Below are positions 38,862 to 61,293 of a DNA stretch of 64,000 nt, piece by piece. Source of the stretch: Hormiphora californensis (lineage: Eukaryota > Animalia > Ctenophora); contig CM035359.1 of the NCBI GenBank assembly GCA_020137815.1, positions 3,906,001 through 3,970,000 of the forward strand. Reading direction: 5' to 3'. Made by a program: the position numbers and the translations under genes. How positions within the stretch are numbered: the stretch's first letter is position 1; each line of letters begins with the position of its first letter. The notes under the pieces were generated by a model. It had not been told where the DNA came from and ran no database searches. It worked only from the letters and a program-made list of their open reading frames with translations.

Positions 38862-38938
38862 CATCACTAGTATATATTGTACTGATTAGTTAGCCCCCGA
38901 TGGGGGCTAACTAATCAGTACAATATATGCTAGTGATG
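38862..38938. other. 37-bp stem, 3-nt loop hairpin; candidate left terminal structure
   Basis: catcactagtatatattgtactgattagttagccccc-gat-gggggctaactaatcagtacaatatatgctagtgatg, with one G-T mismatch. Confidence 0.85.
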
Positions 38939-39234: not shown

Positions 39235-42200
39235 ATGTCTAAACTAGCTGTTGACTCACCATCGGTAAGTTGATTGTAATTGTATCTTAATTCTATTCTA
39301 CTGTTTGCGTTTACCAGTTTGTTGATGTTTGTTGTGTTTAGCCAAGTTTAATTTGTCCCAATTCTTAGGTGGTCGTGCTATCTGATAGCCTCTTCAAGTA
39401 CTTTGATAAGAAGCCATTACCTGCCCATGTGACCAACTTGTTCGTCAGTGGTGACAGGGTCGAGAGAATGACCCACCGTGTTAGTAATCTGCCTGTCGAC
39501 AAATCCGTTGATGATATCATTGTCATGGTCGGCACAAACGACCTCTGGCAACGATTTTCCTATTACACGTTTGCCAAATTCTACCACAACCTTATTGCGT
39601 GCATTGCTGACACATGGCCCTCTGCTGATATTCATTGCTGCCATATTCCGCCGAGGACGCATCAGCGTCAGAGAGGTACGTTGCGTTGCCTTACAAGTTG
39701 AAATTGTAACTTACTAAAATTATTAATTATCTATCACCCAGAACAATTGACTTATTGTAATGTCTTCTTCAGTTGCACCGTACATACCGTTGTATAATGA
39801 GGTAATCACGACTACTGCTGAACAGTTGGTTTCTGTGGTGCCTGTACCATCTGAATGGAGAGACCACATTCACTTGGCAAGGGACGGCCTTCACCTCGGC
39901 TACCCTGGTATCCAGCTGTATAGAAAGGCCACTATGGCATCTATATTTTACAAGAAGGTAAAGGAGAATTGTAACAGCTTGAATTAGGTGTTAGTAAACA
40001 TCCCTACTAAAATATAGTTCGACGCGACGCGACGCGCGATCGATGAACGATCGATAAACAATCGATATCGATCGTTTATCGATCGTTTATCGATCGTTCA
40101 TCGATCGCGCGTCGCGTCGCGTCGAACTATATTTTAGTAGGGATGTTGCATCGTTCGTAATCATGAATTATATCTGATATGTCTATATTGCTCTTCGCAG
40201 TACGTATAATATGTAAAGTAGTACAGTAGTGGTAATAGCAGTGCTATAGTGTATTATAGTTTCAAATTTCAATATTGTTTACGCTATGCTACATTTCATT
40301 ACAGGTCGCCACAGAGATTGTTCATGTCCCCGTCCAGCCCGTCTCAATAGAATCGCCCATCATTGCCACTACGGTGAAAGATATCACGATTCAATCTGAC
40401 CTAGTTGACCTACCAGTGGACCTACCAATCCAATCGGTAAGTATTCATAACCTATTTTGCTCGTGGAGTTGGAGTGCTAGGCCATGTTATAGAACGTGTA
40501 GCAGTACTAGCAATTAGTGGTTGTACAAACAAGCACTATTAGTCTTAGTACAGTAGCGGTAATCCGTAAAGCAGTGCTATAGTGTATTATAGTTTCAAAT
40601 ATCAATATTGTTTACGCTATGCTATGATATATTTCATTGCAGGTCGCCACAGAGGTTGTTCATGTCCCCGTCCAGCCCGTCTCAATCGAATCGCCCATCA
40701 TTGCCACTACGGTGAAAGATAACACGATTCAACCCGACCTAGTTGACCTACCAGTGGACCTACCAATCCAATCGGTAAGTATTCATAACCTATTTTGCTC
40801 AGTTGGAGCTGCTTAGGCCATGTTATATAGAACGTAGTAGCAGTACTAGCAACTTAGTGGTTGTAACAGTAACACTAGCACTATTAGTCTTAGTACAGTA
40901 GTGGTAATAGCAGTGCAGTGCTATATAGTGTATCATATTGTTTAAGCTATGCTATAATATTCTTCATTACAGGTCACTGCAGAGGTGTTACAAGTCCCCG
41001 ACCGACCCGTATCTATAACATCGCCTGTAATTGCCGTGAAAGATGTCACAGAGGTTGTCCAAGTGCCGTTCCCAATAGAATCTCCCACTGAAATTCAGTT
41101 TGGGGAGTTACACTATGATCACGGTATTCTCCGTCCGGATGTAAAGGTTAGAAGCGTTACCATTTTATGTGATGATCATATACTTAGTTCGTATTAGTCG
41201 CACTATTAGTCTTTATACAGTTATAGTGGTAGTAGCAGTGCAGTGCTATATATTGTATCATATTGTTTAAGCTATGCTATAATATTCTTCATTGCAGGTC
41301 ACCGCAGAGGTGTTACAAGTCCCCGACCGACCCGTATCTATAACATCGCCTGTAATTGCCATGAAAGATGTCACGATTCAATGCGACCTTACAGATGATC
41401 TACAAGTGGAGCTACCAGTCCAATCAGTAAGTATACCATTTCTTATTTTTCTCTGTGTTTATTTTAATTTTATCACTACATATTAGCGGAGTCCATTTTT
41501 ATATTTAACACTTTTCTTAGGTGTCAAAACCGAACAATTTAATAAGTCAGCAACTAATTGGAAAGCGGCATCCCCCAGTACCTCTAACACCGTCTCCGAA
41601 GCCACAATCATCTACCCGCCAGCACCGAAAGGATACCCCCTATATCATGCCGACTAGAAAACAGGTATAGTTACATTCAGTTTTCAAAGCAACATGGAAA
41701 TTATATGTACTGTGCAGGTGGACACCGTAATAATTGAGAAATTATTAGTATTTTTTATCACTTTTAGCGGAGTCCATTTTTATATTCAACACTTTTCCTA
41801 GGTGTCAAAGCCGAACAATGTAATTGGAAAGCGGTATCCCCCAGTACCTCTAACACCTTCTCCGAAGCCACAATCATCTACCCGCCAGCACCGAAAGGAT
41901 ACCCCCTATACCATGCCGACTAGTAAACAGGTATAGTTACATTCAGTTTTCAAAGCAACATGGAAATTATATGTACTGTGCAGGTGGACACCGTAATAAT
42001 TGAGAAATTATTGGTATAGTACAAAATTAATTTATCTTTACCATCAGATGTACAAGAAGCGGTCCGTGATACCTGATTCAATGGTTTTACCACATGCAAA
42101 TGGTGCAGATGTAATCTTTTGTGGCAGATTCATCCACTTTACCACTGAGCTACCAGTACTGGAGACACCCGTTTCAGAAGAGGTAGTTTATGGAGGTGGT

Positions 42201-45200
42201 GGGAAAAGTCTTAAGAGGAAATCTTCATTCACACGAAAAACCAGACGAAATAAGAGTAATATTGGTACGTACAAGCTAATTAGTTCAATTACATGTTCAT
42301 TTTATAATTCATTATTATCTTCTTACACTTCCAAAAAAATTAGTTGATATTGATAAAGATCCGATTATCCGTACTAACTTTGTCCTTTCTCCTCAGTTAC
42401 TACGCAACCTACCACTAACAGCGACGAGAATTTTGCAGACATAATTGATGAGGCTGAGGCTCTTAATGCACTACCTCGAGAAGCAATTACTGTCGATACA
42501 ACGTCAAAGTACATAAGGTATAACAAATCAGAGAAAGGACTGAAACGTAGTGCTAAATATTTACTGAACCGTTCATTGTCACAGCCTCACAGCACCATCC
42601 ATACCAATCATTCTCAGTCTGACAGTAGTGAGCAACGTAACCAATCACAGCCGGTCACTACCTCTGTATCGAGACACGTCACATATAACCATTCAGAGAA
42701 GGGGATTGCACGGAAAGTGGCTCATCTAGTTAGAGTTTTATCTACACCCGGTCACATTGAACACATGCGAGCACTTTCGGCACGTAGATCAAGGACAAGG
42801 AGGGCACGGAAGGCAAGCGGGGACCGGTGGGTAAAGCATTACGCTCTGTATCTGCGACGGCGCTCACGGATGCATCAGCAATCTAAAGACAGATTAAATA
42901 GAAGGAAAGGTATCATGGCTAGAGGGCTTAGATTACGTAACACTATTCGTGGTAACATTTCATTTCCTGTTGATTTTGATATACGTGGTTCCAATAGAAA
43001 AGTGGCACTATCTGTGATTAGAAGTCATGATACATCCAGAACTCCTGAGTCAGTTACTCGTTCTTTTAGACTTAATAAGTCTACAATCATTCATGGGAGG
43101 TCAAAGTGCCGATTGCCCATTTTGCCTTTGAGCCGTCACAAGTTTATAGTCAAGTCCAAGTCTCGGATGGGTACTGCATCTCGTGCAAACTTCTACATAG
43201 CGGCACAGAAAACATTAGGTAATGCTCTTGGACACTTTAGTCGTTCTGCGTTACACAATATCAATAAAGTACTGTTTGATGAAACCCCACCCCCTAAGCC
43301 AATTTGTTCTAAAAACTTTATGGTTGCCCGTATATGTAAGTCATTAATTGGTAGATGTCTTGAACGGCGTGACCAGTGGGTTAAGATTGTATATTCTGCC
43401 ACTAGTGATCTTATTGACAATGCCGCTGCTATCCTAGCAAAACAGGATCTGACAAATATGGAGGACTCTGAACTTCTTGGGGGTGCTACTCATGGGGTCG
43501 GTTTTGAACCATTCTTTCCTCAGCACAGTTTTCTTAATGGTAAACATTATAAGTTTGATAAAAGCAAGGGAAGTTCGCCTTGTACGGTTGATTGCATTCC
43601 CGCAGATCAGGACGATATCCAGTCCTTTAAAGAGCTTCTCTCAATTGTCGAGTGTTCTAATGTTTCTAGGGGCAGGGAGCTGTCTATGTTACTGGTTAAG
43701 TGTTCCAACCAACTTACAAGGTCTAGTGAGCAGGACCGTTATTTGCTAAATGTTGAGCACAGCAATCATCCTGAAACCTGTTACCGTCCTCAGAGTCTTT
43801 GTAACAGCAAGCTTGTCCTATTAAAACGACTTGCTGTTCATTATGCTGTACCCAGGCAGTTTCTTACTTGTGTCAGTCGACTTAACATGGCGCACAATTT
43901 TATATGTGATCTCGATTCCGCTGTATCGGCGGGCGATATTGAATATCTAATGAAACTTTTAGCGTACATTCCTTATATTAGTCCTACTATTATAAAACTA
44001 GATAGGTGTTCTGTTCATGTGAATGAAGACACAATGAACGAAAAATATGGTTCTCATTTTCAGACATTTGTCGAGAGTATTTCCAATCTCTCCGAGACCG
44101 CGTGTGTTTCTTGTACCCGTTTAATACTTGATTCTGAATCAATCCTTCTGACTCCACGTATCATTACCCCCCGTCTTAAGAATCCTATGTCTGGCTATAG
44201 CAAACTATTTCAATATCTTAACTCTTCTGATCGCAAACGAAAAGGTTATAATCCTGTATCGAAGCTCGAAGGGATGCGAGTTTGCAATTATTGTCACACA
44301 CGTCTTATAAAGGGGGAAGTTCCTAGGATTGGAATAGAGAACCATATGGATCCTGGTGTTGTGCCGGAATGTATTCGCAAGCTCACTCAGATTGAGCTTA
44401 TGTTTATCAAACCCATGTCAATGTATCAGAGCATTACGTACTGCGGAGCAGTTGGGGGATACGTTAGGAAATCAGAACAGCAGAGGCGTGCGAAAGGTCA
44501 TGCAATCTATCTTCCGGTACCACTTAACGACACTATTGAAAAGCTAATGCTTTGTTCTGGAAAACCTAGGAAGCTTTTAGATATTCCTAGTCATGTGAAG
44601 TTAATTGGTATTCCAAAGGCCGATAGAAGTACCTGGATGAGGTTAATTAATATCAATCTCATTTATGAGTGCCTGCAGTGGCTAAAAGCCAACAATCCTA
44701 ATTATTGTGATATTGTGATTCCAGAGTCAGCAGACTGCCTTTTAGACTTTTTAGCCGATATCCCTACTAGTGACGAGTCATCTAACGGCAACTGTTCTAA
44801 TGGGAGTCATCATTCAGGCGATGTTCCTTCTGTGATCGTTAGTCAAGGGAATGGTAGCAATAGTACCGATGAGCTTATTTCCATCGACTTGGACGCGACA
44901 AGCTCTAGTTATACTTCTGATGAAGTTGGTGCTCCAGGTGTCAAGGGGTGTGCAGTTGCTACTAGGAAAAGGGCGTTGGTGGATGACAGCAGTTGCGAGG
45001 AGGGCGAGGGCAGGTGTCATCATTCAGGTTCTGGGTCTGCTCCTTCTATGATCGTTAGTCAAGGGAATGGTAGCAATAGTACCGATGAGCTTATTTCCAT
45101 CGACTTGGACGCGACAAGCTCTAGTTATACTTCTGATGAAGTTGGTGCTCCAGGTGTTAAGGGGTGTGCAGTTGCTACTAGGAAAAGGGATTTGGTGGAT

Positions 45201-48200
45201 GACAGCAGTTGCGAGGAGGGCGAGGGCAGGTGTCATCATTCAGGTTCTGGGTCTGCTCCTTCTATGATCGTTAGTCAAGGGAATGGTAGCAATAGTACCG
45301 ATGAGCTGATTTCCATCGACTTGGACGCGACAAGCTCTAGTTATACTTCTGATGAAGTTGGTGCTCCAGGTGTTAAGGGGTGTGCAGTTGCTACTAGGAA
45401 AAGGGCTTTGGTGGATGACAGCAGTTGCGAGGAGGGCGAGGGCAGGTGTCATCATTCAGGTTCTGGGTCTGCTCCTTCTATGATCGTTAGTCAAGGGAAT
45501 GGTAGCAATAGTACCGATGAGCTTATTTCCATCGACTTGGACGCGACAAGCTCTAGTTATACTTCTGATGAAGTTGGTGCTCCAGGTGTCAAGGGGTGTG
45601 CAGTTGCTACTAGGAAAAGGGCTTTGGTGGATGACAGCAGTTGCGAGGAGGCCGAGCCCAGCTCTAAGCGTGGTGGTATGGCAGATATTGCTACCACCAA
45701 TGTAATTTTAGATATCTGCCGCCGACTTATAGCTAGTTGTACTCTTTGTAAAAAATGCAGAGTGGATATTAACAAAACTAGGTTAGACCTTGGGACCTTC
45801 GGTTATGTTACATATAGTTCTAGTGATCTCCGGAAACTGCTTTGTGATTTACGCCTTTCTTATTTAAGTCTCAATTGTAGAAGTGTCGTTTGTAGTATAA
45901 GTAATTGTAATGCTCCTTTGAATGGCCGTAAAAAAGCGTTGAAAAAGGTAGGGAAATCCAAAAATATTGCCTGCAATATTGACAGCTTTTGCTCAACCGT
46001 GGAACTAATTAGACAGAATTATATTATGTCTATGGAAATACTGGATCACCTTCTAATAGCTAACCAAATATGCAAAGGGTGTCTCTCATGGTTGTCTAAA
46101 AAAGCAGCAGTACCTGATGCAGCCTTCATGCTCGTTAGTATCAAGTCAACTAAACCTATGTTAAATATTTACCTTTTATCTGAAAGGCTTTATGCATACC
46201 TTAATAACATGAAATGTTTAAATGGTTTAAAGGCCAGTGGACAGTGTCATCATTGCCTAGGTGTCGTTCCAGATGAGTTGAGTAAGGAATTGTTTAATTC
46301 AACTGACTGTATCTCCGGTGAGGAGGGTATCATTGGTGCAACTTCTATGTTTCAGCAATTGTCTCAATTAATTAACTGTACTCGTTCTTCTTGCGATAGT
46401 TCAACCTTACCGGGACGAAAGAATGCTGGTGGATGTGACACTGGTCCGGTCAAAAGTTCTAATCTTGACTCTGCAAAAACCAATAAGGATATTGATACTG
46501 ATATTGATACTGATATTGATACTGAAAGCAATTCATCTCTTTCGAAATCCTTATCAGGTTCTGCAGCAGAAAGTGCAGTTTCTTTTGATTCGTTTCCAGG
46601 TCTAAGTGACATCAATGATGATGTCATTAAAAATGGTCCAATGATCGAAAAAATGAACCGTGATGACTTTCTTAACTTTGTTGATAGTTACACGGTTACA
46701 GGTATAGATCAGCAAACGGACGACCCGTACACTGATTTATACAAACTTTTAAAAGTCGATAGCAAGCCTGGGGATTTTAACGATCCCCTTATTGAAAATT
46801 TGTGTTTTCCAGAATTGTTCCCATTTGGCGAAGGCACCAAGTCGGATGCCAGGGGGGAAGATAGCGATGCCAAAGTGGGTCATTTACTTTACGAGAAAGC
46901 TAGGTTGCTATCAGAAAATGGGACGTTTAGGAGAAATATTCCTTACCTTTTTTATCTTGCGTCTCAAAATGAGAAGAGAAAAATTGGTCAAGGTATATCT
47001 GCTGCCTTGCGTAATGTGTCTGGATTTGGTAGTCTCACATCTCGCCAAATTCTGGATATGATCCAGAACAACGACGAGAAATTAATACGCCACATGACTA
47101 GGACCATGTCTAATATTCCTGGTACTGAGCAGTACTTTAGTTCTGCAAAAGTTAAACTTAGGGCCCAAACTGAGAAATTTGGACCACCAACATTCTTCGT
47201 TACCTGCAGCCCTGCCGAATTTGACTGGAAGGAGCTAACTGCTCATTTACGGGAGCGCAATAAGGATATTCCTGATGTTGATAGACTTTCGGATAGCGAA
47301 CTTATAGCAAGGGATCCTGTTACCGCGTCGTCATACATACATCGCAAATTCGATGCTCTGTTAAAGTTTATAGTGGAATCTAAATGCCTGGGCGAGGTTA
47401 AAAGCTGGTTTGTGAGGCATGAGTACCAGACTCGTGGTACGGTACATTATCATTTTCTTTTATGGATTAAGGATGCTCCTGTAATTGGTAAGGATAGCGA
47501 TGAGAATGTTGCCAATTTTCTAAGTGAACGTATTACTTGTCGTATCCCTGATGCTGTTAACGAACCAAAACTACATAGGATAGTTACTAAGTTCCAGAAA
47601 CACCGGTGTGGGCCTTACTGTAAGAAAAAGTTTAGGCATAGGAATGGCCACTTTATATCTACACAGTGCAGGTTTTCATTTCCTCGTAGTCCATCAAAGG
47701 TCTTCAAGTTGCACGATGTTAAGGATACTATAGTTGGGCGGCGTTCAGGCAACTTGAAGAAACGTCTCTATAGCTTACCGCGAACGAAGGATGAGGTCAA
47801 CATCAATGATTATAATGCAGTTATTTCATATTTATGGGAAGGTAATATTGATATCCAGTTCCTTTCGGAGAAATCATTCAGTGTCTCGGCATATGTTAGC
47901 AAATACTGCCTGAAGGCCGAGAAGAGTAATCTAAACTTCTCAATTGAAAACACTACTGGTAACAACATGACTGCAAATCAGCAATTTCATAAATTTGTAT
48001 ACAGTTGTCTCCGGCAAAGAGAGATGAGTGCTATGGAAGCTGCAGACCGCATACTCCACAATAATGGCGAAATGTGGAGAAGTTCCGAGACATTCGAATG
48101 GGTTCCAACTGTTTCTCCCGGTCATGGTCGACGTAGGTTAATGAAAAAGTACAAGGATTTAGAAGGTCAGGATCCTAATTCAACTGATGTTTTTATTCCT

Positions 48201-51200
48201 GATATGATTCATGTATTTTATCCTAATCGGCCTCAATGTCTTGATGACATGAGTCTTCATGATTTTGTTTCCACGTATGAGCGGTTATACGGGAAAACGG
48301 GTGGAGATGTCCTTATTCGCGATCCCACTACTAAAAAGGTCTTGGCACGATTCAAGAAACGGGCTAAGCAACCGATCATATACCACCATCGGTATTCCCA
48401 CAGGACTAAGCCAGAAAAGTTTTACTATTCACTGCTTGCTCTTCATAAGCCCTGGAGAACGGAGGGCGATATTTTAGGGCCAAGTGCAACCTATGAAGCT
48501 GAGTTCTTTAGGTGCATTGCGGACAGGTCTGAGCTTAAGTCGCGGGCAGAGGCCATAATTAACATAGAGCAAGCCCGTGAAACCATGGAGCAACGCGTCA
48601 ACGAGGACCTCACTAAGGGGCCAGAATCCCAGCAATGTTCTGATGGGATCGAAAACGATGCTCTGATTGCATTTGAGGCTTCTAGGTCTGGGGCAGCTGT
48701 ATCATCTGATGAACTTGAAACTATCATTCAAACCTTGAATATAGATCAGCGGTCCATTTTCGATTTAGTTGTTGATAAAGTTACCAACGACAAGCAGCTC
48801 CTTCTTTATGTCTCTGGGTTTGGGGGGACAGGGAAGTCTTATGTTTTAAAAGCAATAACTTCCTATATTAGGCTCCATAATAAAGATGTCCTTCTAGCTG
48901 GTCCTACTGGTCTTGCTGCTAAAAACATTTCGGGTATGACTCTGCATTCGATATTTAATCTTCTGGTTGAGCACGGTTGTCAGCCTAAGTACAGTGCCCT
49001 TAAAAAACCGGTCTTGGATCAAATGCGGGCTGTTTTTAAAGATCTTCAGTGCATAATTATTGATGAAATTAGCATGGTTTCTAATGTTCTCCTCTTATAT
49101 GTCCATTTTAGGCTTAACGAGATATTTGCTCCTGGTGGTGGTCAGCTATTTGGTGGTAAACACGTTATAGTGTTTGGGGATTTGCTTCAACTTCCCCCAG
49201 TTATGGCCCAGCCTCCCTATGTTACTTTGCCTGAAATAGAAGTTCATAAATTAACTAACGGCCTACCTCAAGAAATTAACCTATGGCAACATTTTGAATT
49301 TAAAGAGCTTACCATTAATCAGAGGCAAAAGGGCCAAGAAAATAAATTGTATTCCGATCTCTTAGGAAGGTTAAGGCTTGGTGCATGTATTCCAGATGAT
49401 TTTAGTATGCTTAATTCTAGGGTTATAAACTTGGGGGGGACGTCGCCGGAAGAGCTACGCAAGTCACTGGTAGATCGTTATCTGTCAGTTGCCCAGATCG
49501 AACCGTCTGTCGTATGCCTTCTACCTAAACGATCCATGGTTAAAGATTTTAACGGGGCTATAATGGCACGTAATTTCCCGGATGCAGAAAAGGTCGAGGC
49601 GGTAGATGAGGTGGAGCAATCAGGGAGGAAAAACAAGAAGTTGGAGAAGAACATTATGGACGCAGTTAGAAAGTTAGATGACGAAGGGGATGATAGGAAC
49701 ACAGGGGCTCTAGAAAAAGTTCTCTTTCTAGCCCCGGGTGTAAGGTGCATGTTGAGGCAAAATCTCGATGTACCGAATGGCTTGACAAACGGCACAATCG
49801 GTACTATTGTGACACTTCAGAGGGACAACGGAGGAGTAGTGGATAAACTGGTTGTGCAGTTTGATGGATGTAAGGAACCTGTCACTATACACCGCGAGAA
49901 ACGGAAGATCATGGTATTTACAAACGGTTACTTCTACAGGGAACAATTCCCCGTCACCGTGTGTTACTCGATGACCGTTCACAAGAGTCAGGGTTTGTCG
50001 CTTAAGTCTGCATTTGTGGATATCGGTCTCTCCATCTTTGAAGCTGGTCAAGTTTACGTTGCCTTGTCAAGGGTCACCTCTATGGCTGGGTTACATATAA
50101 TCAATCTAGCACCTGCAAAAATATTTGCGAGAAAGGACGCGTTGGTGGTTTACAAGCACATGGGAAGCAAGCCTTTGCATGATTCAGTTAGACCGGGGAA
50201 TCAGGAGCCTGTCGAGCCTGGTCCAGGAGAGCGTATTTGGTATACTACTGCATCGTCTAGGTTGGCTAGAAGTACTATCAAATCGACAATTTCCAATATG
50301 GCATCAAAGGTTAAGGATAAGGTTAAGCGTACCCTCAAAGGTCCTCTTCCTACTACCACTAAAAATCCTTCTAAGCGGTGTCATAGCGATGTCCTCAGTG
50401 TTACTTCTGATAATCTTTCTAGTCATATAGATGCTGTGTTTGCTATTACGTCACGTTCTAGCTATTTTCATAATTTTACTCGTATCGAGATTGCAACTAT
50501 TTATTCAGATTTGATACTTCCAACAGCCCAATTAGTGGCTGCCGGCAGGGTTCCATCTACTTTAAGGTGCGAACTATCTCTTCAGCTAAACCCTGATCCA
50601 TTTTCAGTATTAAGTTACACCCGATATAAATGGTTAAGTGGGTCACTCATGACACGGTATATATGGTATCTGCAGGATACCATTCAAAATTTGTCCATGT
50701 ACAGTATGGGGTACGGGGTTGAAGAATCGTATGGTATTGTAGGGCTAAACAAGAGTGAAGAACACTTTAGCCAAAAACGATTTTGCCTCAAGCAATACTC
50801 CTTAAATGGCACTGCTGCCAGGTACAGTCGCAGAGGTGAAATCGTTAAGGCCGGCCATCCAATGGATAAGGATTTAGTTGTTGTATTAGGAAACCCAGGT
50901 AATCATTGGATCCTGGTAATAGTAGACAATAGACCATCTAAGAGGTGCGTCTTATATTTTGATTCTGCCAGTAAAAGCATCCCTAATTCCCTCAAAAAGA
51001 GGAGGTGTCAGAAGTATGTAGCGTTCATTAAGAAATGGTGTGATTACTTACCAATAAAATATGGTGTCTGCAGTAGTGCTGGCGGTATAATGGATACCGC
51101 TACGTATAGGTTTACTAATTTAGACGGTAAATCCAATCAACAGGACAATACTTATGACTGTGGCGTATTTGCTCTTTCAAATTTAGAACAGTACTTGTTG

Positions 51201-51305
51201 GGTAATGCGGTGACTACGGTTCGGGCTCGTGACATGGTTGGAATTAGGGCACAACTCATGCACCGCATTTACACCCATGGGATCAACACTGGGTACATCG
51301 TTTAG
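39235..51305 (+). CDS. Spliced SGNH hydrolase - repeat linker - Rep/Helicase - C48 protease protein (~3,495 aa, 11 exons)
   Basis: Exons 39235-39264, 39369-39675, 39773-39957, 40305-40436, 40643-40774, 40973-41146, 41298-41426, 41521-41664, 41802-41930, 42048-42264 and 42397-51305. All are GT-AG, phase-compatible and free of stops, totalling 10,488 nt. Confidence 0.75.
39369..39957 (+). CDS. SGNH/GDSL hydrolase domain (exons 2-3 of the element gene)
   Basis: Block I VVLSDSL, block II SG, block III MVGTNDL, IPPR, and block V DGLHL in the next exon. Confidence 0.85.
39997..40147. mobile_element. 151-bp near-perfect palindromic MITE in intron 3 of the element gene
   Basis: aacatccctactaaaatatagttcgacgcgacgcg... 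is mirrored by ...cgcgtcgcgtcgaactatattttagtagggatgtt. Confidence 0.8.
42576..51305 (+). CDS. Helitron RepHel ORF (HUH Rep plus Pif1-family SF1 helicase) with C-terminal Ulp1/C48 cysteine protease
   Basis: Rep motifs FFVTCSPAEFDW, EYQTRGTVHYHFLLW and YVSKYCLKAE. Helicase motifs GFGGTGKS, IIDEISM, GDLLQLPPV, QFPV...TVHKSQGLSL and GQVYVALSRV. Protease motifs HWILVIVD, YFDS and QQDNTYDCGVF. Confidence 0.97.
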   Translation: MSQPHSTIHTNHSQSDSSEQRNQSQPVTTSVSRHVTYNHSEKGIARKVAHLVRVLSTPGHIEHMRALSARRSRTRRARKASGDRWVKHYALYLRRRSRMHQQSKDRLNRRKGIMARGLRLRNTIRGNISFPVDFDIRGSNRKVALSVIRSHDTSRTPESVTRSFRLNKSTIIHGRSKCRLPILPLSRHKFIVKSKSRMGTASRANFYIAAQKTLGNALGHFSRSALHNINKVLFDETPPPKPICSKNFMVARICKSLIGRCLERRDQWVKIVYSATSDLIDNAAAILAKQDLTNMEDSELLGGATHGVGFEPFFPQHSFLNGKHYKFDKSKGSSPCTVDCIPADQDDIQSFKELLSIVECSNVSRGRELSMLLVKCSNQLTRSSEQDRYLLNVEHSNHPETCYRPQSLCNSKLVLLKRLAVHYAVPRQFLTCVSRLNMAHNFICDLDSAVSAGDIEYLMKLLAYIPYISPTIIKLDRCSVHVNEDTMNEKYGSHFQTFVESISNLSETACVSCTRLILDSESILLTPRIITPRLKNPMSGYSKLFQYLNSSDRKRKGYNPVSKLEGMRVCNYCHTRLIKGEVPRIGIENHMDPGVVPECIRKLTQIELMFIKPMSMYQSITYCGAVGGYVRKSEQQRRAKGHAIYLPVPLNDTIEKLMLCSGKPRKLLDIPSHVKLIGIPKADRSTWMRLININLIYECLQWLKANNPNYCDIVIPESADCLLDFLADIPTSDESSNGNCSNGSHHSGDVPSVIVSQGNGSNSTDELISIDLDATSSSYTSDEVGAPGVKGCAVATRKRALVDDSSCEEGEGRCHHSGSGSAPSMIVSQGNGSNSTDELISIDLDATSSSYTSDEVGAPGVKGCAVATRKRDLVDDSSCEEGEGRCHHSGSGSAPSMIVSQGNGSNSTDELISIDLDATSSSYTSDEVGAPGVKGCAVATRKRALVDDSSCEEGEGRCHHSGSGSAPSMIVSQGNGSNSTDELISIDLDATSSSYTSDEVGAPGVKGCAVATRKRALVDDSSCEEAEPSSKRGGMADIATTNVILDICRRLIASCTLCKKCRVDINKTRLDLGTFGYVTYSSSDLRKLLCDLRLSYLSLNCRSVVCSISNCNAPLNGRKKALKKVGKSKNIACNIDSFCSTVELIRQNYIMSMEILDHLLIANQICKGCLSWLSKKAAVPDAAFMLVSIKSTKPMLNIYLLSERLYAYLNNMKCLNGLKASGQCHHCLGVVPDELSKELFNSTDCISGEEGIIGATSMFQQLSQLINCTRSSCDSSTLPGRKNAGGCDTGPVKSSNLDSAKTNKDIDTDIDTDIDTESNSSLSKSLSGSAAESAVSFDSFPGLSDINDDVIKNGPMIEKMNRDDFLNFVDSYTVTGIDQQTDDPYTDLYKLLKVDSKPGDFNDPLIENLCFPELFPFGEGTKSDARGEDSDAKVGHLLYEKARLLSENGTFRRNIPYLFYLASQNEKRKIGQGISAALRNVSGFGSLTSRQILDMIQNNDEKLIRHMTRTMSNIPGTEQYFSSAKVKLRAQTEKFGPPTFFVTCSPAEFDWKELTAHLRERNKDIPDVDRLSDSELIARDPVTASSYIHRKFDALLKFIVESKCLGEVKSWFVRHEYQTRGTVHYHFLLWIKDAPVIGKDSDENVANFLSERITCRIPDAVNEPKLHRIVTKFQKHRCGPYCKKKFRHRNGHFISTQCRFSFPRSPSKVFKLHDVKDTIVGRRSGNLKKRLYSLPRTKDEVNINDYNAVISYLWEGNIDIQFLSEKSFSVSAYVSKYCLKAEKSNLNFSIENTTGNNMTANQQFHKFVYSCLRQREMSAMEAADRILHNNGEMWRSSETFEWVPTVSPGHGRRRLMKKYKDLEGQDPNSTDVFIPDMIHVFYPNRPQCLDDMSLHDFVSTYERLYGKTGGDVLIRDPTTKKVLARFKKRAKQPIIYHHRYSHRTKPEKFYYSLLALHKPWRTEGDILGPSATYEAEFFRCIADRSELKSRAEAIINIEQARETMEQRVNEDLTKGPESQQCSDGIENDALIAFEASRSGAAVSSDELETIIQTLNIDQRSIFDLVVDKVTNDKQLLLYVSGFGGTGKSYVLKAITSYIRLHNKDVLLAGPTGLAAKNISGMTLHSIFNLLVEHGCQPKYSALKKPVLDQMRAVFKDLQCIIIDEISMVSNVLLLYVHFRLNEIFAPGGGQLFGGKHVIVFGDLLQLPPVMAQPPYVTLPEIEVHKLTNGLPQEINLWQHFEFKELTINQRQKGQENKLYSDLLGRLRLGACIPDDFSMLNSRVINLGGTSPEELRKSLVDRYLSVAQIEPSVVCLLPKRSMVKDFNGAIMARNFPDAEKVEAVDEVEQSGRKNKKLEKNIMDAVRKLDDEGDDRNTGALEKVLFLAPGVRCMLRQNLDVPNGLTNGTIGTIVTLQRDNGGVVDKLVVQFDGCKEPVTIHREKRKIMVFTNGYFYREQFPVTVCYSMTVHKSQGLSLKSAFVDIGLSIFEAGQVYVALSRVTSMAGLHIINLAPAKIFARKDALVVYKHMGSKPLHDSVRPGNQEPVEPGPGERIWYTTASSRLARSTIKSTISNMASKVKDKVKRTLKGPLPTTTKNPSKRCHSDVLSVTSDNLSSHIDAVFAITSRSSYFHNFTRIEIATIYSDLILPTAQLVAAGRVPSTLRCELSLQLNPDPFSVLSYTRYKWLSGSLMTRYIWYLQDTIQNLSMYSMGYGVEESYGIVGLNKSEEHFSQKRFCLKQYSLNGTAARYSRRGEIVKAGHPMDKDLVVVLGNPGNHWILVIVDNRPSKRCVLYFDSASKSIPNSLKKRRCQKYVAFIKKWCDYLPIKYGVCSSAGGIMDTATYRFTNLDGKSNQQDNTYDCGVFALSNLEQYLLGNAVTTVRARDMVGIRAQLMHRIYTHGINTGYIV
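44807..45651 (+). repeat. In-frame 216-bp (72-aa) tandem repeat, about 4 copies, inside RepHel
   Basis: tcatcattcagg recurs at 44807, 45017, 45233 and 45449. The peptide unit is ...NSTDELISIDLDATSSSYTSDEVGAPGVKGCAVATRKRALVDDSSCEE. Confidence 0.95.
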
Positions 51306-51650
51306 TAGAATATTTTCTATTATCATTATTGCAATTTCTTTTCTGTGAAAAGTGATTTATGTGAAAACCGATTTTTCTGTGAAAACTGATTTCTGTGCAA
51401 ATGAATTCTGTGAATTCTGTGAATGTTTCAAGAGCGATTAATTGTGGCAGATTCTGAATAACAATTACATATTCAAACCTGAAAACTGTATTTTACTAAT
51501 GTCTTATTCCAAACCTTAGGCAACGTTCAACACGTACTAAAACGAATGACGCACCCCCCTCCCAGCTAAACTGCTCATTGCGCAATTTATTGAACCTGTA
51601 CACTACCTCTTGGATAATCGTATAACTAACATAATCACTTCCCATTTAGA

Positions 51651-52756
51651 ATGGCGTTGCTAATTGTTATGATATTTCTGTCGGCCAGTGCAACTAAGGA
51701 CTTCATAGTGTACGAGAAACAAGCGATGCTCCTAGTGAAGGACGACATTGTTCCACGTATGTAATTGTGACTTTTTGTTGGCTGTACTACTGTGTGTAAC
51801 ATAACGTATGTGGTCTTGGTAAGTAAGTATTTACATTTCCTGCCCCTCTCCGTGTATTTAGAAGGTATTTCATATATTAACACCTACAACCATCGCAGAT
51901 TATGGGGATGAGACTCTACTGAGGCTTCACCTTGTTGTACCTAAGCCTGCCATTATAAGGCCAGCACGAATGCGACTTGCGATCAAAGCTCAAGAGGATG
52001 TGGCCACATTACGACTCTTTCAACCGTAAGTATTATAATATTATAATATTAATAATAGCGGATAGCTTTAGGAAGTCTACAATGTTCTAGTGAAGACTTT
52101 ATTATTATTAGTAATTACAGCTACTATCCAGGGGCCAGGTCTAGATGGGCTGAATGGTTATTAGCACACGTCTAGAATTGAGGGAGGATTTCTTAATATG
52201 ACGTTTACCAAAGAACATCATACTCAGGAATCTCATCATTATGTTCACCCAGGTGTATAAAATATTGGATGGACATGGAAGATACTTTGATGGAACGAAT
52301 ACAATCCTGTTCTTGTCAAAACCCGACAAGTAAGTTGAACACTGCTTCTAGAGCCAAATCTTCTCAGTTTGACTTGGAACTACGTGAATCCAATTGAATA
52401 ATACCATTTGCATTATAATAATATAATGTACAAACTAAATTACGGAATTTTCAAATAGGAAAACGAAGAAAGGCCGGGTCCACCGCTGTCAGCAGAGATG
52501 GATATTTACGAGGCCTCATGATGAACGATGCTGAAGTCCGTAAAGGCCTCAAAAATCAGGTAACATAAGCCTCATGCTAAATTATGTGGTAATAAAGTCG
52601 GACAAACTCCAATTGACTCTAAAATGGCATGTGTCCTTTCAGGTTAAGATCAACAAAAACGACATAGTGATACATATGCTATTCGCACAAGAACTGAAGA
52701 TCAAATGGGAGATCGATAGCTGCATGGATTCTGCAATTGATTACTTCGCACAGATT
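51651..52756 (+). CDS. Spliced secreted or membrane protein gene (5' part) with signal peptide and furin-like RKRR; possibly envelope-like; exon 3 disrupted
   Basis: Exons 51651-51756, 51899-52025, 52121-52329, 52459-52559 and 52643-52756 have compatible phases. The protein starts MALLIVMIFLSASA and contains PTRKRRKAG...GYLRGLMMNDAE. Three in-frame stops lie at 52173-52196. The 3' part is lost in noisy sequence. Confidence 0.45.
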
Positions 52757-52797
52757 GTAAGCATCTTCATACTCCTTCTCTCACTCTCTATAATCTC

Positions 52798-52849
<52 letters not shown>

Positions 52850-53029
52850 CTCTTCCCCCTCCCCCCTTTCCTCTCCTCTCCTCCTCCCCTCTTTTCCTCT
52901 CTCTCTCTCTCCCCTCTTCCTCCCTTCCCCTTTTCCCAATTTTTTTTCAATTGGGGGCAAAGGAGGGGGGTCACGGGGGATGTTTTTTTTGGGGGAAAAA
53001 AAAATGAAAGGTTTTAATTTTTTTTCAGT

Positions 53030-53061
<32 letters not shown>

Positions 53062-54990
53062 CAGGAACGGGAAAAATGGGATTTAAACCCAAATAAAAAG
53101 GGGGTTTGGGGCCCTTTAACTTTTGGGTTTTAAAGATTTTTCTTTTCCATCCTTTTCTTAAAAGGGGAAAACTCTGAAATTCAGAATGGGAAAAAGGGCT
53201 TTTTTTTAAAAAAAATTACCCCCTTAAAATGTTTTTCCTTTTATTTTTTCCCAAAAAACAGCCACGGGTAAATAAAAGGAGTGGCAAAAAATTTGGGGAT
53301 TCAAACCCAATCTTTTTGTTTTTTTCCCAATTTCTTAAGCAGGGCAATCCCCTTGCCTTTTCTCCCGGGAAATTTTTTTAAAAAACAGGTATGAGGTTTA
53401 AAACATGTTGGGTCGTTAAAGGTTCTCCCCCCCTACGGTTGCCAAACCAAAACCCATTTCTAAAATCAAAATCAAAAACACTGCTCGGCCCAAAAAATTA
53501 AAAAAACCCCCCATTTCCATAGGGGGTTTAAAAATGGTGATGCCCTTTTTTTCTCCACCCCGTTTTTCCCCAAAGGGAAAGGGGGGGGTTGTCTTTTTTT
53601 TTAAAAGGAAAATTTTTCATAAATTTTTCTTTGCCCCCGGGTTTCTTCTCCCCGGGGGGGCAGCTGCCCCCAATTGTTTAGTCTTTTCTTGGGGAAATTC
53701 CTGAAATAAAATCGGGAAAAAACTGCAGACCCCCCTCTAGGGAAAAGCGGGCCCCCAACCTAACTTTTAAAACAGCGTTCCGGGGACACTTTTTTCAGTA
53801 AACCCCGGTTTTGGGGCCCAAACCCCCGGTAACTCAATATGAAGCTTTAATCATCACCGCCTTTTTTTTTAAAACTACACTTTTTTATACTTTTGGTTTT
53901 CAGCAAAACCCGGTTTTATTTTCCGGGAAAAAATTGGGGTGCCCCAGTTTTTTAAAAAAATTAAATCCAAACCCCAAGGTTTTTCCTTTAAAAAGGTTAA
54001 TTTTTAGGGTAATTATCCCAAAACCCAGGGCTCCCTTCCCCTTTTTAAAAACCCTAAAAGAAGTTTTTCATCAAATAAAAAAACCTTGAGAAAACAGAAA
54101 AAACCGTTTTTAAACAAACACCAAGTTTTCCCGGAAAAAAAAATGCAGCCCAGTTTTTAAAAAAGGGTACACACTTTTTAAAAAAAAAAGGCCCGGGTTA
54201 TCAAAATTTTATTTAAATTTGCTACCCCTTTTTGCTCAAAAAAGTTTATTTGGTTTTTTGTTTTAAATTAAGTTTTGGTTGTGACTTTGTTTTAAGGTGA
54301 AAAATTTAATATTTCCCCCCCGAAAAAAATTTTTTTTTAACAATTGAAAAAACGAAAAACCCAATTTTTTTAAATTTTTTTAATTGTTTATTTATTTTAA
54401 TCTATGTTATTATTTTTTTATGTTTTATTCCAGTTTTAAACCCTTTAAATAAAGTTTTAAATCAGGGGTATTCTATACCAGTGGCAATCTTTTTGGCACA
54501 GGCTTTTTGACGGGAAAAAGGGGATCCAAAAATAATTTTCTTCTCTCTCTCCTCTCTCTTCCTTTCTCCCTCTCCTTCTTTTCCCCTCTCTCCCTCTCAT
54601 CCTCTCCCCCTCTCCCTCTCTCCGCCTCTCCCTTTTCCCCCCTCCTCCTCCCTCTCCCCTTCTCAAAACCCCTCCTCTCTTTCTCCCCCCTCCTCTCTCT
54701 TTTCCCCTCTCCCCTCTCCCCTCCTCTCTCCTCTCTCTTTTATCTCTCCCTCTTTTTTCCTCTCTTTTCTCTCCCTCCCTTCCCCCCCCATGACCCCCAA
54801 ATTACAAAAAAAAAAAAAAAAACCCAAAAAAAAATACGGGCATTTGTTTTTATAAAAGATCCCCCCGCGCATTTTACCAAAAATTTTGGGTTTTGGCCGG
54901 GCAGGGGCCCCACCTTCCGACATTTTTATTTTTATTTTTCCTTTACAAAATTATATTGGTGTTTTTTAAAGGAAAAAAAAATAAAAAAAT
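52850..54990. other. Low-quality, homopolymer-inflated sequence
   Basis: Abrupt excess of A/T/G/C runs and degraded (CT)n tracts, unlike the flanks. This pattern is typical of unpolished single-read sequence. Confidence 0.8.
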
Positions 54991-55180
54991 GCATGATACT
55001 AGATCCAAAAACCAAACAAGTTTGGTGGATAACCGGGGCCTCTCACTCAACAATTATATCTCCCTCTCCCCTAACTTTTTACTCGTGGGTATAGTAATTC
55101 TCTCTCACTCACACACATTCTGGTATAATATCAATTGCAACTGGTTGCACAGCATTTTTATTGAAGGGGATCTTGGCCGT

Positions 55181-55323
<143 letters not shown>

Positions 55324-55708
55324 ATCCTTTCTCCATTTCTCTCTCTCTCTCTCTCTCTATCTCTCTCCCTCTCTCCTCCTCTCTCTCTCTCTCTCTCTTC
55401 TCTCTCCCTCTCTCTCTCTTCTCTCTATTTCTCATCCTTTCTCCATTTCTCCATTTCTCTCTCTCTATCTCTTCTCTCTCTCCCTCTCTCATAATTAAAA
55501 TACGTGCGAAAGATTTGATATGAAATTCGGGGCCCGGGGTGCTATGAAATTCGCGTTTCCATGATAACCAGCTATTTTTACAAGTCACACAATTCTTAGC
55601 CACGGCTTTGGTTTTCTGAGAGACGCAATAGGATAAGACACGCTGAGTTGGCTGAGTTAAAATAATTACTGAGTTATACAAGTTATACATGAATTAAAGT
55701 TAAACAAG

Positions 55709-56164
55709 CTAGTCAGACAGGGTGGTTTCGTTGGTGGATGTTCTTCCAGCTCGTCTATATCGGATGTCGGACTGTTGGATGACGTATGTGTAAGGAAATA
55801 ATCGGACAACTTTCAGCAATCCCAGGAAGGCTAGAACAAGGCCGGCAGCCACTCCGGCAGTATACCAGTCAATGTAGATCCCAGATATAGGTTGGCTAGT
55901 CGCGGTTGGAGTAGTAGAGGGAGCTGTTGAGGGGGCTGGTAGGGTGCAGGACTCCACGACTGACATGGCAGCAAACTCTTCCTCCGCTGGATCAAAGATG
56001 ACAACTGTCGAGGTACTAGAAATACAGTTCTCTGTCTCGTGACATAGGTTCGTCGTTTCCTCAAGGTCCTTGAACAGCTCCACTGTAGAATTGATGTTGA
56101 TGAGGGTAACGCAGGTCTGGTATCCGCAGGCGGCCGAGATGAAGAATGGAAAAAGGAAAAGCAT
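55709..56164 (-). CDS. Small intronless type I membrane protein (151 aa)
   Basis: Signal peptide MLFLFPFFISAACG, Cys-containing ectodomain with N-x-S/T site, S/T/P-rich stalk, TM helix AGVAAGLVLAFLGLL and basic tail. A TATA-like GTATAAAA lies about 35 bp upstream. Confidence 0.7.
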   Translation of the reverse strand: MLFLFPFFISAACGYQTCVTLININSTVELFKDLEETTNLCHETENCISSTSTVVIFDPAEEEFAAMSVVESCTLPAPSTAPSTTPTATSQPISGIYIDWYTAGVAAGLVLAFLGLLKVVRLFPYTYVIQQSDIRYRRAGRTSTNETTLSD

Positions 56165-56285
56165 TTTGGAATAATCTACTGGTTTTCCGGATATGTTTTA
56201 TACAAATCTACAACAGATCTCGTGTAACAGTTGTAGTGAACTCGGGTAACAGTTATTCGACTACAAGTCTCCGATAACCGCACAA

Positions 56286-56407
56286 GTTATGGCGATAATG
56301 GGTTTGCTACGTGATACCACCCATTATCGACAGTGTGTCTTGACACGTTATGGCGATAATGGGTTTGCCATGTGATCCCACCCATTATCGATAGTTTCAG
56401 ACTCATG
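56286..56407. repeat. Two tandem 61-bp units, each forming an 11-bp hairpin (cgataatgggt/acccattatcg)
   Basis: Units start at 56286 and 56347. The stems are identical while loops and spacers differ. Confidence 0.85.
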
Positions 56408-56665
56408 TTATTGTAAAACTGCTGCGACAGTGGTAAGACATTTCACCCAAACGAGGAAAACCAAAGCCGTGGCTAAGAATTGTGTGACTTGTAAAAATAG
56501 CTGGTTATCATGGAAACGCGAATTTCATAGCACCCCGGGCCCCGAATTTCATATCAAATCTTTCGCACGTATTTTAATTATGAGAGAGGGAGAGAGAGAA
56601 GAGATAGAGAGAGAGAAATGGAGAAATGGAGAAAGGATGAGAAATAGAGAGAAGAGAGAGAGAGG

Positions 56666-56712
<47 letters not shown>

Positions 56713-56746
56713 GAGAGAGAGAGAGAGAGAGAAATGGAGAAAGGAT

Positions 56747-56890
<144 letters not shown>

Positions 56891-57386
56891 ACGGCCAAGA
56901 TCCCCTTCAATAAAAATGCTGTGCAACCAGTTGCAATTGATATTATACCAGAATGTGTGTGAGTGAGAGAGAATTACTATACCCACGAGTAAAAAGTTAG
57001 GGGAGAGGGAGATATAATTGTTGAGTGAGAGGCCCCGGTTATCCACCAAACTTGTTTGGTTTTTGGATCTAGTTGTGGGATATGTATAATGCACATTATC
57101 CGGAGAGTTATATATCGTGACCGAGCTGAGGGCATTATTATGAGACCAACATAGAAGTCAGTCAATGTGTGTAACATAACAACTACACACTGCACACAGG
57201 CAACTCTTCTACATTCCAAGTTTATGTTGCATAGCAGAGTTCCTTTATTTGATTGTACATGTACCGTGATTTATATGCTTTGATTAATTTGATGGTTTTG
57301 ATTCTGTCAGTTTGTGAAAATACCGCACTGCGATCAACTTGATATCGTTTCATATTATATATCCTGTCTCATTGTACTGTGAACAA

Positions 57387-60358
57387 ATGCGGATCCATGA
57401 CAGAAGATTCAAGTTCATTGCCTGTGGATGGGCTCTCCTTTTAATCACCTTTATCCTTCCATACAACCCACCCGTAACTGAGGATACTCTTGCTGGTGTG
57501 AAACAATCCAACAACAAATCCTCTGAACAAATCCAAACATTATCTGACAATGATTCACCCCCACCTGGAAATCAAAATGATCCGCCCCGACCCAAAGAAC
57601 TTCAAGAGGAGAGAGACAAAAAGCAGTTGTTTGTCATCCTGGTGACAGGTTTCAGAACGGGGTCAACCTTTCTGGGTTCTATCTTCAATCAGAATGATGA
57701 TGTCTTGTACATGTTGGAGCCTCTTCACCAGTCACATCTAGGGAGCTTGGCCATGAAAGGATTGATTCAAGGTGATTTTGGTAAATTCTCGTACATTATT
57801 CAACGCTTTTCCCATTTAATATGAAATTGAAGTTTTTGCCGGTGTCTAATTGTCTCAATTTCTACAGGAGTAAGTGAAAGCAGCACTAACTTGGATCAGC
57901 AGATAGCTTATCTCACCCAGATAATAAACAAATGTGACGTTGGATTTCCACATGCACCACACTTGAGTCGATGTAAGTCTGTCTTTCTATCCGTCTATAG
58001 ATAGATACAGATCTGTCTGTCTGTTTGTCTGTCTGTCTATCCGTCTATAGATAGATATAGATCTGTTTGTCTGTCTGTCTGTCCGAAACATCTAACTCCC
58101 ATCCAGCAATGCAATGTGATACCCCAGAGGAGAACGTGAGAAGATGGGGAGCTGAGAAATGTGATGTGGAACGGTGGAACATAGCATGCAAAAAGATGGA
58201 TTTCGTGGCTCTAAAGGTGAATTATGAATAGAATATAATTAGGTAGACACCAGAATTTCTTGCCTTGTTCGACCCTCCTCCCCAAAACAAAGAATTTCAT
58301 ACATTATTTTCAGGTAATCAGACTCCAGAGAATAGCACACCTGGCACTGGTACTAGGTATTGAGAATGCTAACATCAGGGTCATTCATCTGATCAGAGAC
58401 CCTCGGGGAACAATGAACAGTCGGCTGCCTTTTGAAAAGTTTATGCTTGATGTGAGTAAGGAAAAAATAACTCTTTCTTTATTGGCCAAAACTTAGATAT
58501 TTTTACGTATCTATGTAAACAGTAAAGGTATTTTACTTACTTACTTCTGCTTCTGGTTACTTCTGATGATTCGCCGCCGTTTACACTCCGACCGGGGTAT
58601 CGCTTGCTTGCAACTCCCCGTCGTTCAGTCTCATGTCTAGTATAGAGTTCCTGGAGCTTCGTACATATCCCGTAACTGGGGGACAGTCCGAAAACGACGT
58701 CAGGTATCTTGACAGCTGAACTTTGAATACCTGGAACTCGTCAATTTGATTAAGTTTTGCAGGTAAACAGTTCCATAGTCGTGGTCCCATAACAGCAAAG
58801 GATCCGTCATATGCTGTCTGTTTGGCCATAGTGGACAGTTTGGTCAATTTGGGAACCACAGCTCGAACTCCAAGTCGGCCTCCAGTTGTGAACCTTATTT
58901 TGAGGTCATTGGAGACTAGGCCGTGCATGATCTTCCACATGTGGAGAATGGAGTATCTCTCTCTCCTGCGCTGCAGGGAGCTAAGGCCCAGGTATTGCAG
59001 TCTCTGCCAGTAATCCATCCCCTTGCACTCAGAGATCCGTCTGGTGAAGGAGCGTTGCACCCCCTCTAAAACCTGGATATCCTGGATCTTGGTAGGATTC
59101 CAAAGAGGGCAGCAGTATTCCAGCAGGCTTCTTACCATGCTCTTGTAGAGGGTTACCATAACCCCTCTATCCCTGGTCGTGAACACACTAAACACCCAGG
59201 CTGCTTTCCTCTTAGCGTTTTCGGCGATGGTAGCGATGTGACCGGACCAGGTTAGATCAGAATGAACAAGCACGCCCAAATCCTTAACCGAGGACATAGG
59301 TTTCAGCAGCCCTGCTGAAGTGCTGTAGCTCAAGATATCAGCAGTAAAAGGGAGATGGTGCATGAGATGGTCACGTTCCTTGGATTCTATTGCTCTGCTA
59401 CAGATAGCCTTGTGTAGTTTCCTACATTCCGGACCCTTGGCACAACCTTTCTCTCCTTTCTTCCCCCAGGGGACACATAGTTTCGGATGAAAAAAGTCAC
59501 ACCTATCCTTACCGTCAGCAGATTTCTTCCCAGTTATGCCATGAGGACACCTACCCTCCTTGAGCAACATACAAGTAGTTTCGCACTCGTTTGGGAATTT
59601 TTCCGCCTCCTTCTGCTGTTTCGCGAGATTGGCCAGTGCTTCCAGCACAGTCGGATCGTCAGCATTCACCTTCTCGCTTGCCTCATCGTTCATTTTCGTT
59701 TTCCGTTCACTACCGGGCTCAACAATCGACAGACTGTTATTCCTAGACCTTCCAGGCGTATTCAGTCGCGATGAGACCTTGGTAGTAAGCGGTGTACCCT
59801 TTTCCTCATCTTTGGGAACACAGCACGGATCACATATCCAAACTTCTCCTACCAGGCTTGAAGCTTCATTTCTGGAAGTGATTACACTCACCAAAGGTTC
59901 ACAGTCATGGGAAGGTTGGTGACAGAGAAAACACCTCAGAGGAACGAGGCCATTCCTCTTGTGCTGGTAGATGTCGTTACATTCAGCACATTTGACTGGC
60001 ACGGTCAGGGCTTTGAGCTCCTGAGCAACCCTGAGAGCAATCCTGGGCTTTGTTTTCAGCTCTATGTCCTTAACCCCCTTTTCACCATATAGGGGAGGAA
60101 TACCGAGAAACTCCGCGAATTCATCGAGAATGGGTCGGTTAACCTTTGATAAGGACGCCTTATTGGCCCACACAGGTTGTGATGTATCGAAGTGTGTCAA
60201 GCAGGTTTTAACAGCTTCCGGACCAGTCCGAATCATCTCCCCGAGTACTTCCTTGGCTGTGCCATGTTTGTCATGATTGGCCATTACTTTTACCATAGGC
60301 TAGATCCTCAAATTAACTTGTTTAAAGTAGTGTTGAAAAGTTTGTTTATATTGGGATC

Positions 60359-60394
<36 letters not shown>

Positions 60395-61066: not shown

Positions 61067-61293
61067 TAGAATGTAGATCTTTTAAGTTATTTTAAACTGT
61101 TTGCCCCCTTTATGTGTTTGCTTTGTATTTGTCTGCAACAGCCCCACTTACACTCAAACTGCGGCAAAAATCACACATCAGGGGTGATGACTGCATGAGG
61201 GGATAGTAGGTGACCAACTTGAGACTCATATGACATATTTGACTCACCACAGCACGAGAGGTCAACAACCGGCCGTAACAGGAGACTCAGGGA

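Follow-up and report, generated by a model that had tools for sequence, protein, structure and literature searches.

It has been previously reported that, in the F proteins of baculoviruses and the F-type envelope (Env) proteins of errantiviruses, a hydrophobic peptide right after the cleavage site is nearly universal and required (PMC1262188, PMC13524379). Among mobile elements of another kind, Helitron2 (HLE2), the domain DUF6570 serves as a marker, and the elements carry extra genes (PMC11417382). We analyzed 64,000 nucleotides of the genome of the ctenophore Hormiphora californensis (GCA_020137815.1, contig CM035359.1, positions 3,906,001 to 3,970,000 of the forward strand; this whole stretch is called the window, and positions count from its first letter), in which a first-pass annotation had placed a candidate F-like fusogen gene directly downstream of RepHel, the Rep-helicase gene of a Helitron2-type element. 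We found that a spliced gene is present downstream of RepHel, with an exon chain beyond chance. This gene was previously unannotated, and its sequence predicts a spliced message and a secreted product that is likely cut in two. It resembles F-type fusion proteins only faintly, and because it has neither a hydrophobic fusion peptide nor a family-profile score above chance it should not be filed as a member of Baculo_F.

The best five-exon chain between 51560 and 52780 scored 28.4 under hand-set splice weights (Table 1), a score reached by none of 200 dinucleotide shuffles (maximum 15.4; only two yielded any chain) and by none of 104 natural 1.2-kb tiles of the window (maximum 18.3). Since this chain outscores all shuffles and natural tiles, we conclude that a spliced gene is present. 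It begins 345 nt downstream of RepHel, its acceptor ends at 51649 and its ATG lies at 51651; exon phases are compatible throughout. The branch point and acceptor 1 nt before an ATG that opens a signal peptide, as described in the first-pass annotation, were thus found in place, with a hydrophobic N-terminus whose top 19-residue hydropathy is 1.92, at residue 2; the signal peptide call rests on this hydropathy and not on SignalP. The five in-phase exons proposed there also hold as a chain, except that the 5' part of exon 3 is likely intronic and that their splicing was not observed. Other readings of the same sequence were set aside. A mini-exon at 51520-51533 was dropped because a variant in run X10 lacks its acceptor, a hydrophobic stretch obtained by reading exon 5 past its donor was rejected as T/C-rich intron, and an in-frame RepHel read-through spliced from 51293 is possible on paper and unsupported.

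Exon 3 had been described with three stops within 24 nt. We confirmed these at 52173, 52179 and 52194 and found them unchanged in all four short-read runs (X4, X7, X9 and X10), of which X9 and X10 come from other studies, independent of the assembly, and X4 and X7 possibly from the source DNA. The stops are therefore genomic, and repolishing, which had been proposed as a check, will leave them in place. With an acceptor at 52213 or 52252 the chain stays in phase and contains no stop, the 52252 path scoring best, and since these downstream acceptors skip the stops in phase, the stop-carrying portion is probably intronic. The best chain does create the RKRR furin site proposed for the exon 3/4 junction, but among the eight stop-free combinations of exons 3 and 4 two make RKRR and six do not, and the best path with the site (28.4) is in a near tie with the best path lacking it (28.1, under slightly different, stricter rules). 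First-AG-after-branch scanning and base composition favour the path with the site. Because the competing acceptors come later than the first AG to follow the branch point and are embedded in sequence rich in purines or GC, we regard the RKRR junction as probably the one used. Coding scores of the introns were left aside as circular, the introns having been in the training set.

The first-pass annotation had taken the acceptor before the ATG as a sign of the spliced RNA from which retroelement env genes are expressed. In Hormiphora, a spliced leader is found on at least 56% of full-length reads, and the mRNAs of ctenophores often bear such leaders (PMC8527503). The RepHel ATG (42048) likewise lies directly after a branch point and acceptor, and a loose branch-acceptor-ATG pattern occurs 15 times in the window. 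An acceptor in this position is ordinary for ctenophores and no sign of retroviral-style env expression; the argument carries no weight, because ctenophores commonly trans-splice and RepHel starts in the same way. A spliced-leader acceptor or the acceptor of an intron in the 5' untranslated region explains the site at 51649. For the latter, the closest cis donor at a usual intron distance is 51534, which would give a 116-nt 5' intron. The donor or leader joint foreseen in the first-pass annotation thus has a cis candidate, and no RNA joint in the reads.

We then compared the gene with F-type fusogens, using 23 fetched F-type loci (17 distinct), two of them confirmed as Baculo_F (Pfam PF12259); nearly all are of the baculovirus type, and the ctenophore F-type Env of Beroe would be a fairer comparison. 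About 175 residues of the gene are testable against the family profile. RKRR ends at residue 107-151 in the models that contain it, against 106-165 in the 22 references that are full-length, one being truncated, and residues +10 to +17 after the site (D-x-Y-L-x-G-x-M) match in exact F register. These eight residues scored 19.8 (family minimum 22.0), which none of 5000 shuffles and none of 173 natural RX[KR]R sites reached, a match favoured by two biases in that the references were selected by a motif-fixing pattern and the sub-window was picked after it had been seen. Over +1 to +17 the score was 7.6 (family minimum 44.6), reached by 12 of 5000 shuffles. Within the family motif D-K-Y/F-L-F-G-x-M-D, the K, the F and the first D are replaced in the gene. 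The first nine residues after the site are polar, as had been cautioned, with a hydropathy of -0.37 against 0.74-1.63 in the 17 distinct references and a profile score of -12.2 (family minimum 18.6) that 3209 of 5000 shuffles reached; no hydrophobic fusion peptide stands directly after RKRR.

Beyond the motif, about 55 residues are predicted to be helical, in agreement with the possibly helical segment noted earlier; AlphaFold on the exon 4 and exon 5 peptides alone gave helix over 20 and 33 residues, and short single-sequence folds lean to helix. Unprompted, hhalign aligned 43 columns from the site on, through LKNQVK (P 0.0021, probability 13%, 0 of 150 shuffles), with a 7-residue gap needed before the helix match, and in pairwise comparison with four references 1, 36, 194 and 305 of 500 shuffles scored as high as the gene. 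After the motif, where a first heptad repeat (HR1) would lie, the heptad moment is 0.38, against 1.22-1.49 in three references, which is not above shuffles (1507 and 197 of 2000). There are no N-glycosylation sequons in the readable part, against one to three in all 23 references over the same span. Against the full family profile the score was -1.7 bits, a level also reached by 467 of 2000 shuffles; the site-plus-helix block gave 1.7 bits, which 71 of 2000 shuffles and 7 of 726 window chunks attained. Pfam, Baculo_F included, returned no family for 11 gene-region queries, and we found no further F-like piece in the window. In favour of the proposed F-like fusogen are thus the predicted signal peptide, the distance to the probable RKRR site, the match to the motif and the predicted helix; the tip, the sequons, the heptad pattern and the profile speak against it.

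The 3' part of the gene is unreadable, because the assembly is homopolymer-inflated and the short-read contigs stop in the (TC)n repeat: past 52777 each 500 nt contain 20-25 homopolymer runs, where other parts have 0-3, and from there on the earlier statement that the rest cannot be read was borne out. No significant template for this stretch was found elsewhere in the window (best 108, null 92-108). F references place the anchor 413-438 residues after the cleavage site, so any anchor would be encoded beyond the readable sequence. For the unreadable stretch we also considered a fold-back origin; 40-80 nt at about 54470-54550 loosely resemble 55120-55200.

To judge the association with the element, we examined RepHel and the reads. 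The long RepHel frame (42378-51305) is intact over 2975 codons, with Pfam matches to Rep, Pif1 helicase and DUF6570 at E 2e-25, 4e-33 and 4e-18. Among 89 matches to it, the closest named ones are proteins of Mnemiopsis leidyi and EukProt 'sb' models (identity 43-49%), the latter of which we take to be Pleurobrachia. In runs X4, X7 and X1 one contig continues unbroken from the end of RepHel through the gene, with 0, 3 and 0 differences (for X7, 3 in 2486 nt), and X1 depth is flat, at 25.7-26.3, across the unique part of RepHel and the gene. In X11, the one small-share seawater run compared, diverged (about 88-95%) contigs of RepHel and of the gene both occur, the gene pieces differing at 10/181, 11/183 and 14/185 letters and the helicase pieces at 22/178 and 31/254, which is evidence of co-occurrence, not of linkage. 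The exon variants of X10 comprise two synonymous changes (exon 2 and exon 5) and two conservative ones (residues 2 and 9, exon 1; read by hand), and all three indels of that run lie upstream of the ATG. Over 50300-52785, 3 of 2486 letters differ in runs that carry a second organism label, against about 15 in another run of the first label; this 99.9% identity across two labels, taken without a host-gene control, could reflect recent transfer or mislabelling. We consider it probable that the gene is carried by the Helitron2 element, a cargo status that has to be inferred because the 3' end of the element and its terminal repeat pair were not found.

Homologue queries consisted of unspliced frames (stops as X) or single exons, with at most about 95 true coding residues, so that their sensitivity is low and distant relatives may remain. 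A word search of 5.8 billion proteins gave 645 candidates (247-788 aa), none at E<=10, and the exon 2 region gave 12 (208-664 aa) without a match. No annotated homologue was found by phmmer over 1.84 billion representatives, where the sole match, a tandem-repeat protein matching the translation of intron 3, was rejected as an artefact. PDB sequence searches returned 0, 0, 1 and 0 matches, the one being an antibody light chain (E 0.059). Locus scans of viral, metagenome and prokaryote sequences gave 26, 90 and 57 pattern matches, none confirmed; a motif scan with the candidate's own spacing gave 0, and the ESM Atlas had no usable match to exon 4 or exon 5. Among the 20 runs that contain the gene, one is an RNA run, X18, with a single unspliced 151-nt piece at depth 2; X24 has none. 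The lack of an annotated homologue and the single unspliced RNA piece fit a quiet passenger.

Taken together, the data directly support the chain of exons, the hydrophobic N-terminus, continuity with RepHel in contigs from three runs and the polar segment after the site. The reading that we put forward, with about an even chance of being right, is that of an HLE2 passenger gene freed by splicing, the product of which is cut at RKRR, helical and extracellular, and does not fuse membranes. The element would be transcribed as a row of genes, an SGNH gene, RepHel and the passenger gene, with each later gene released when the acceptor immediately ahead of its ATG is joined to a spliced leader or used to remove a short 5' intron; the acceptor-then-ATG layout common to the gene and RepHel supports this. 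The product would enter the endoplasmic reticulum and then be cut by a furin-type protease. Cleavage at RKRR may expose a long helix, which could form helical oligomers on the cell or in the extracellular space, and the gene would be copied along when RepHel rolls the element. Membrane fusion is unlikely because the exposed end is polar. As to its origin, a captured or lineage-specific secretory gene appears somewhat better than an even bet, and descent from an F-type envelope gene, with later decay of the fusion tip, somewhat short of one. Several observations weigh against the passenger reading. RKRR depends on splice choice, and the in-register motif match is better than expected of an unrelated protein. 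No subterminal inverted repeats link the 5' region to downstream sequence, the search (to which 52780-54997 was unreadable) giving two stray 13-mer pairs at implausible ends. The metagenome relative L083 (ctenophore-type, 41% identity), the sole relative with a useful flank, has no signal-peptide gene in the 876 nt after its RepHel stop and ends in a hairpin within 900 nt of that stop. Finally, no splice joint was observed in the RNA runs X18 and X24, where absence of cover is not evidence of silence.

It is unlikely, in our judgement, that the gene product is a functional F-type (class I) fusogen whose fusion peptide is unusual and which lets the element bud in membrane and enter new cells as errantiviruses do. 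The signal peptide, the F-like position of RKRR, the exact offset of the motif and the helical residues would all suit such a protein, its missing 400 or so residues and anchor could sit in the unreadable 2.2 kb, and F-type env is present in ctenophore errantiviruses (PMC13524379); transfer, if it and not mislabelling lies behind the identity across organism labels, would suit it too. However, the tip is polar, the heptad moment low, the helix match gapped and the whole-profile scores at or near chance, sequons are missing, and in the readable part of the element we recognised no gene for capsid, gag or matrix. The claim rests on an eight-residue motif, whose window was chosen post hoc. We think it equally improbable that a ctenophore Helitron2 captured and intronised an F-type envelope gene for movement between cells or animals, as an enveloped Helitron whose fusion peptide is atypical. 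The gene could instead be a lineage-specific host gene for a secreted pro-protein beside which Helitron2 inserted, a reading to which we likewise give a low probability. Its short introns and leader-type acceptor are host-like, L083 ends soon after RepHel, there is a small palindrome ahead of the ATG (about 51577-51586), and X1 holds no diverged second copy of the gene, though helicase paralogues raise depth there. On the other side, contigs across the RepHel end and the gene are bubble-free, which is unexpected for a two-allele host gene if this host is as polymorphic as the ctenophore of PMC8527503, with its single-nucleotide heterozygosity of about 2% (again with no host-gene control); no homologue was found among annotated ctenophore proteins, and no spliced RNA was seen. 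Very unlikely, finally, is a decayed gene with a true 209-nt exon 3 containing the three stops, or another exon 3/4 junction without the furin site. The stop-carrying portion is not intron-like in composition (GC 0.42, against 0.23 for 52026-52120, with a coding score positive in one frame), most stop-free junctions lack RKRR and RNA is wanting, but exons 1, 2, 4 and 5 each remain open in a single frame of matching phase, no stop interrupts the best chain, the X10 variants change the protein conservatively or not at all, and RepHel is intact.

Table 1. Features of the probable passenger gene and of the Helitron2-type element around it (window positions)
Feature	Position	Strand	Basis or remark
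ACTAAC branch point plus splice acceptor, 1 nt ahead of start codon	51626..51649	+	sequence; no variant in 4 runs
Exon 1: ATG, predicted signal peptide, 35 codons	51651..51756	+	
Exon 2, single open frame	51899..52025	+	
5' portion of exon 3 of the first-pass annotation, with three genomic stops	52121..52252	+	probably intron, or micro-exon plus intron
Exon 3 of the top-scoring stop-free model; alternative acceptors 52213, 52227	52253..52329	+	
Exon 4: finishes predicted RKRR furin site, nine polar residues, DGYLRGLM motif, start of predicted helix	52459..52559	+	
Exon 5, predicted helix; donor at 52757	52643..52756	+	
(TC)n repeat and low-quality, homopolymer-inflated assembly	52777..54997	.	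short-read contigs end in repeat
RepHel gene, Helitron2-type; first exon 42048-42264, then open frame	42048..51305	+	DUF6570, Rep, Pif1 helicase, Ulp1 (C48) protease
Upstream spliced gene: SGNH hydrolase exons, then Pro/Val/Thr-rich repeat exons, ending in stops	39235..41930	+	
37-bp perfect hairpin just inside probable 5' end of element	38862..38938	.	

The remainder of the element has features of its own. The SGNH-repeat frame ends in a stop codon a few bases short of a donor at 41931, whose intron would end at the RepHel ATG, and the junction (41900-42050) is possibly a stop-restart or a leader-resolved two-gene message. An intron of the SGNH gene contains a near-perfect 150-nt palindrome (39997-40147) in a region of very high X1 depth, and one contig skips 40001-40146; for both reasons it is likely a high-copy inserted element resembling a miniature inverted-repeat transposable element. 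RepHel carries an in-frame 216-nt repeat (44825-45656; 3.9 copies, 98% alike, Ser/Gly/Asp-rich), and its relatives L081 and L083 have three introns in the Ulp1 domain, where the window copy has none. Scans for RepHel gave either nothing or 80 generic Pif1 helicases in viral contigs, 0 matches in prokaryote genomes and 3 loci in metagenomes. Among the protein matches to RepHel, two from fish carry a fused GDSL domain.

The window as a whole has short introns and many (GA)n repeats. Adjoining the unreadable stretch, an element at 54998-57073 has inverted arms of about 620 nt that hold (TC)n/(GA)n, and on the minus strand its spacer has a frame of 162 codons (55709-56197) that opens hydrophobically, includes a Thr/Pro-rich stretch and has no clear Pfam match. 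A second fold-back element, at 27847-30282, has arms of about 860 nt at 98% identity and a 674-nt spacer. On the minus strand, 31885-37423 contains a frame of 500 codons in which transposase-like motifs (D and WDxxR) can be seen by eye and which has no Pfam match, and the exons before it are tandem, duplicated and zinc-finger-like, possibly a hAT-like element. A spliced host gene at 57380-61070 presumably resembles a carbohydrate sulfotransferase, judging from a motif seen by eye, and a fragment of a long interspersed nuclear element lies in its intron (58581-60299, minus strand).

Helitrons cross between animal species, and their route out of the cell is an open question. An envelope gene on a Helitron, if true, would be a direct exit mechanism and a new pairing of replication and entry modules, and the enveloped element would be a DNA counterpart of errantiviruses. 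No case of an enveloped Helitron appears in the titles and abstract openings of a literature that takes in few subscription papers, and the word 'envelope' does not occur in the main text of PMC11417382. On the likelier reading, a secretory-pathway orphan on an intact HLE2 element is an unusual cargo.

Compared with baculovirus F and errantivirus F-type Env, the predicted product has in common a predicted signal peptide, a probable basic site about 105-150 residues in and a predicted helix (PMC13524379, PMC1262188), as well as a match to D-x-Y-L-x-G-x-M at +10 to +17 and the probable place of last gene in a mobile element. It differs in its nine polar residues, the 7-residue gap, the lack of a heptad moment and of sequons and its four or more introns; furthermore, its partner is RepHel and not gag-pol or a large DNA virus, with no capsid seen. 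One supplement sheet of PMC13524379 contains class III sequences only. Iris, the domesticated F-type env of Drosophila, is a precedent for lost fusion features and a gained intron (PMC1262188), although Iris lost its furin site, is a fixed host gene and has clear homology, whereas the present gene has apparently retained the site, has a polar tip and shows borderline homology. The texim SGNH genes on fish Helitrons (PMC4021074) are paralleled by the SGNH gene upstream of RepHel, a likeness that concerns this upstream gene and not the passenger gene, in a host that is here a ctenophore. HLE2 elements are matched in the DUF6570, Rep and Pif1 domains of RepHel, its Ulp1 (Peptidase_C48) protease and the extra genes beside it (PMC11417382); the element is not a strict Helentron, because it has no endonuclease domain. 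The captured domains named for HLE2 in that paper are DNA- or protein-modifying, whereas the gene described here belongs, by its predicted signal peptide, to the secretory pathway.
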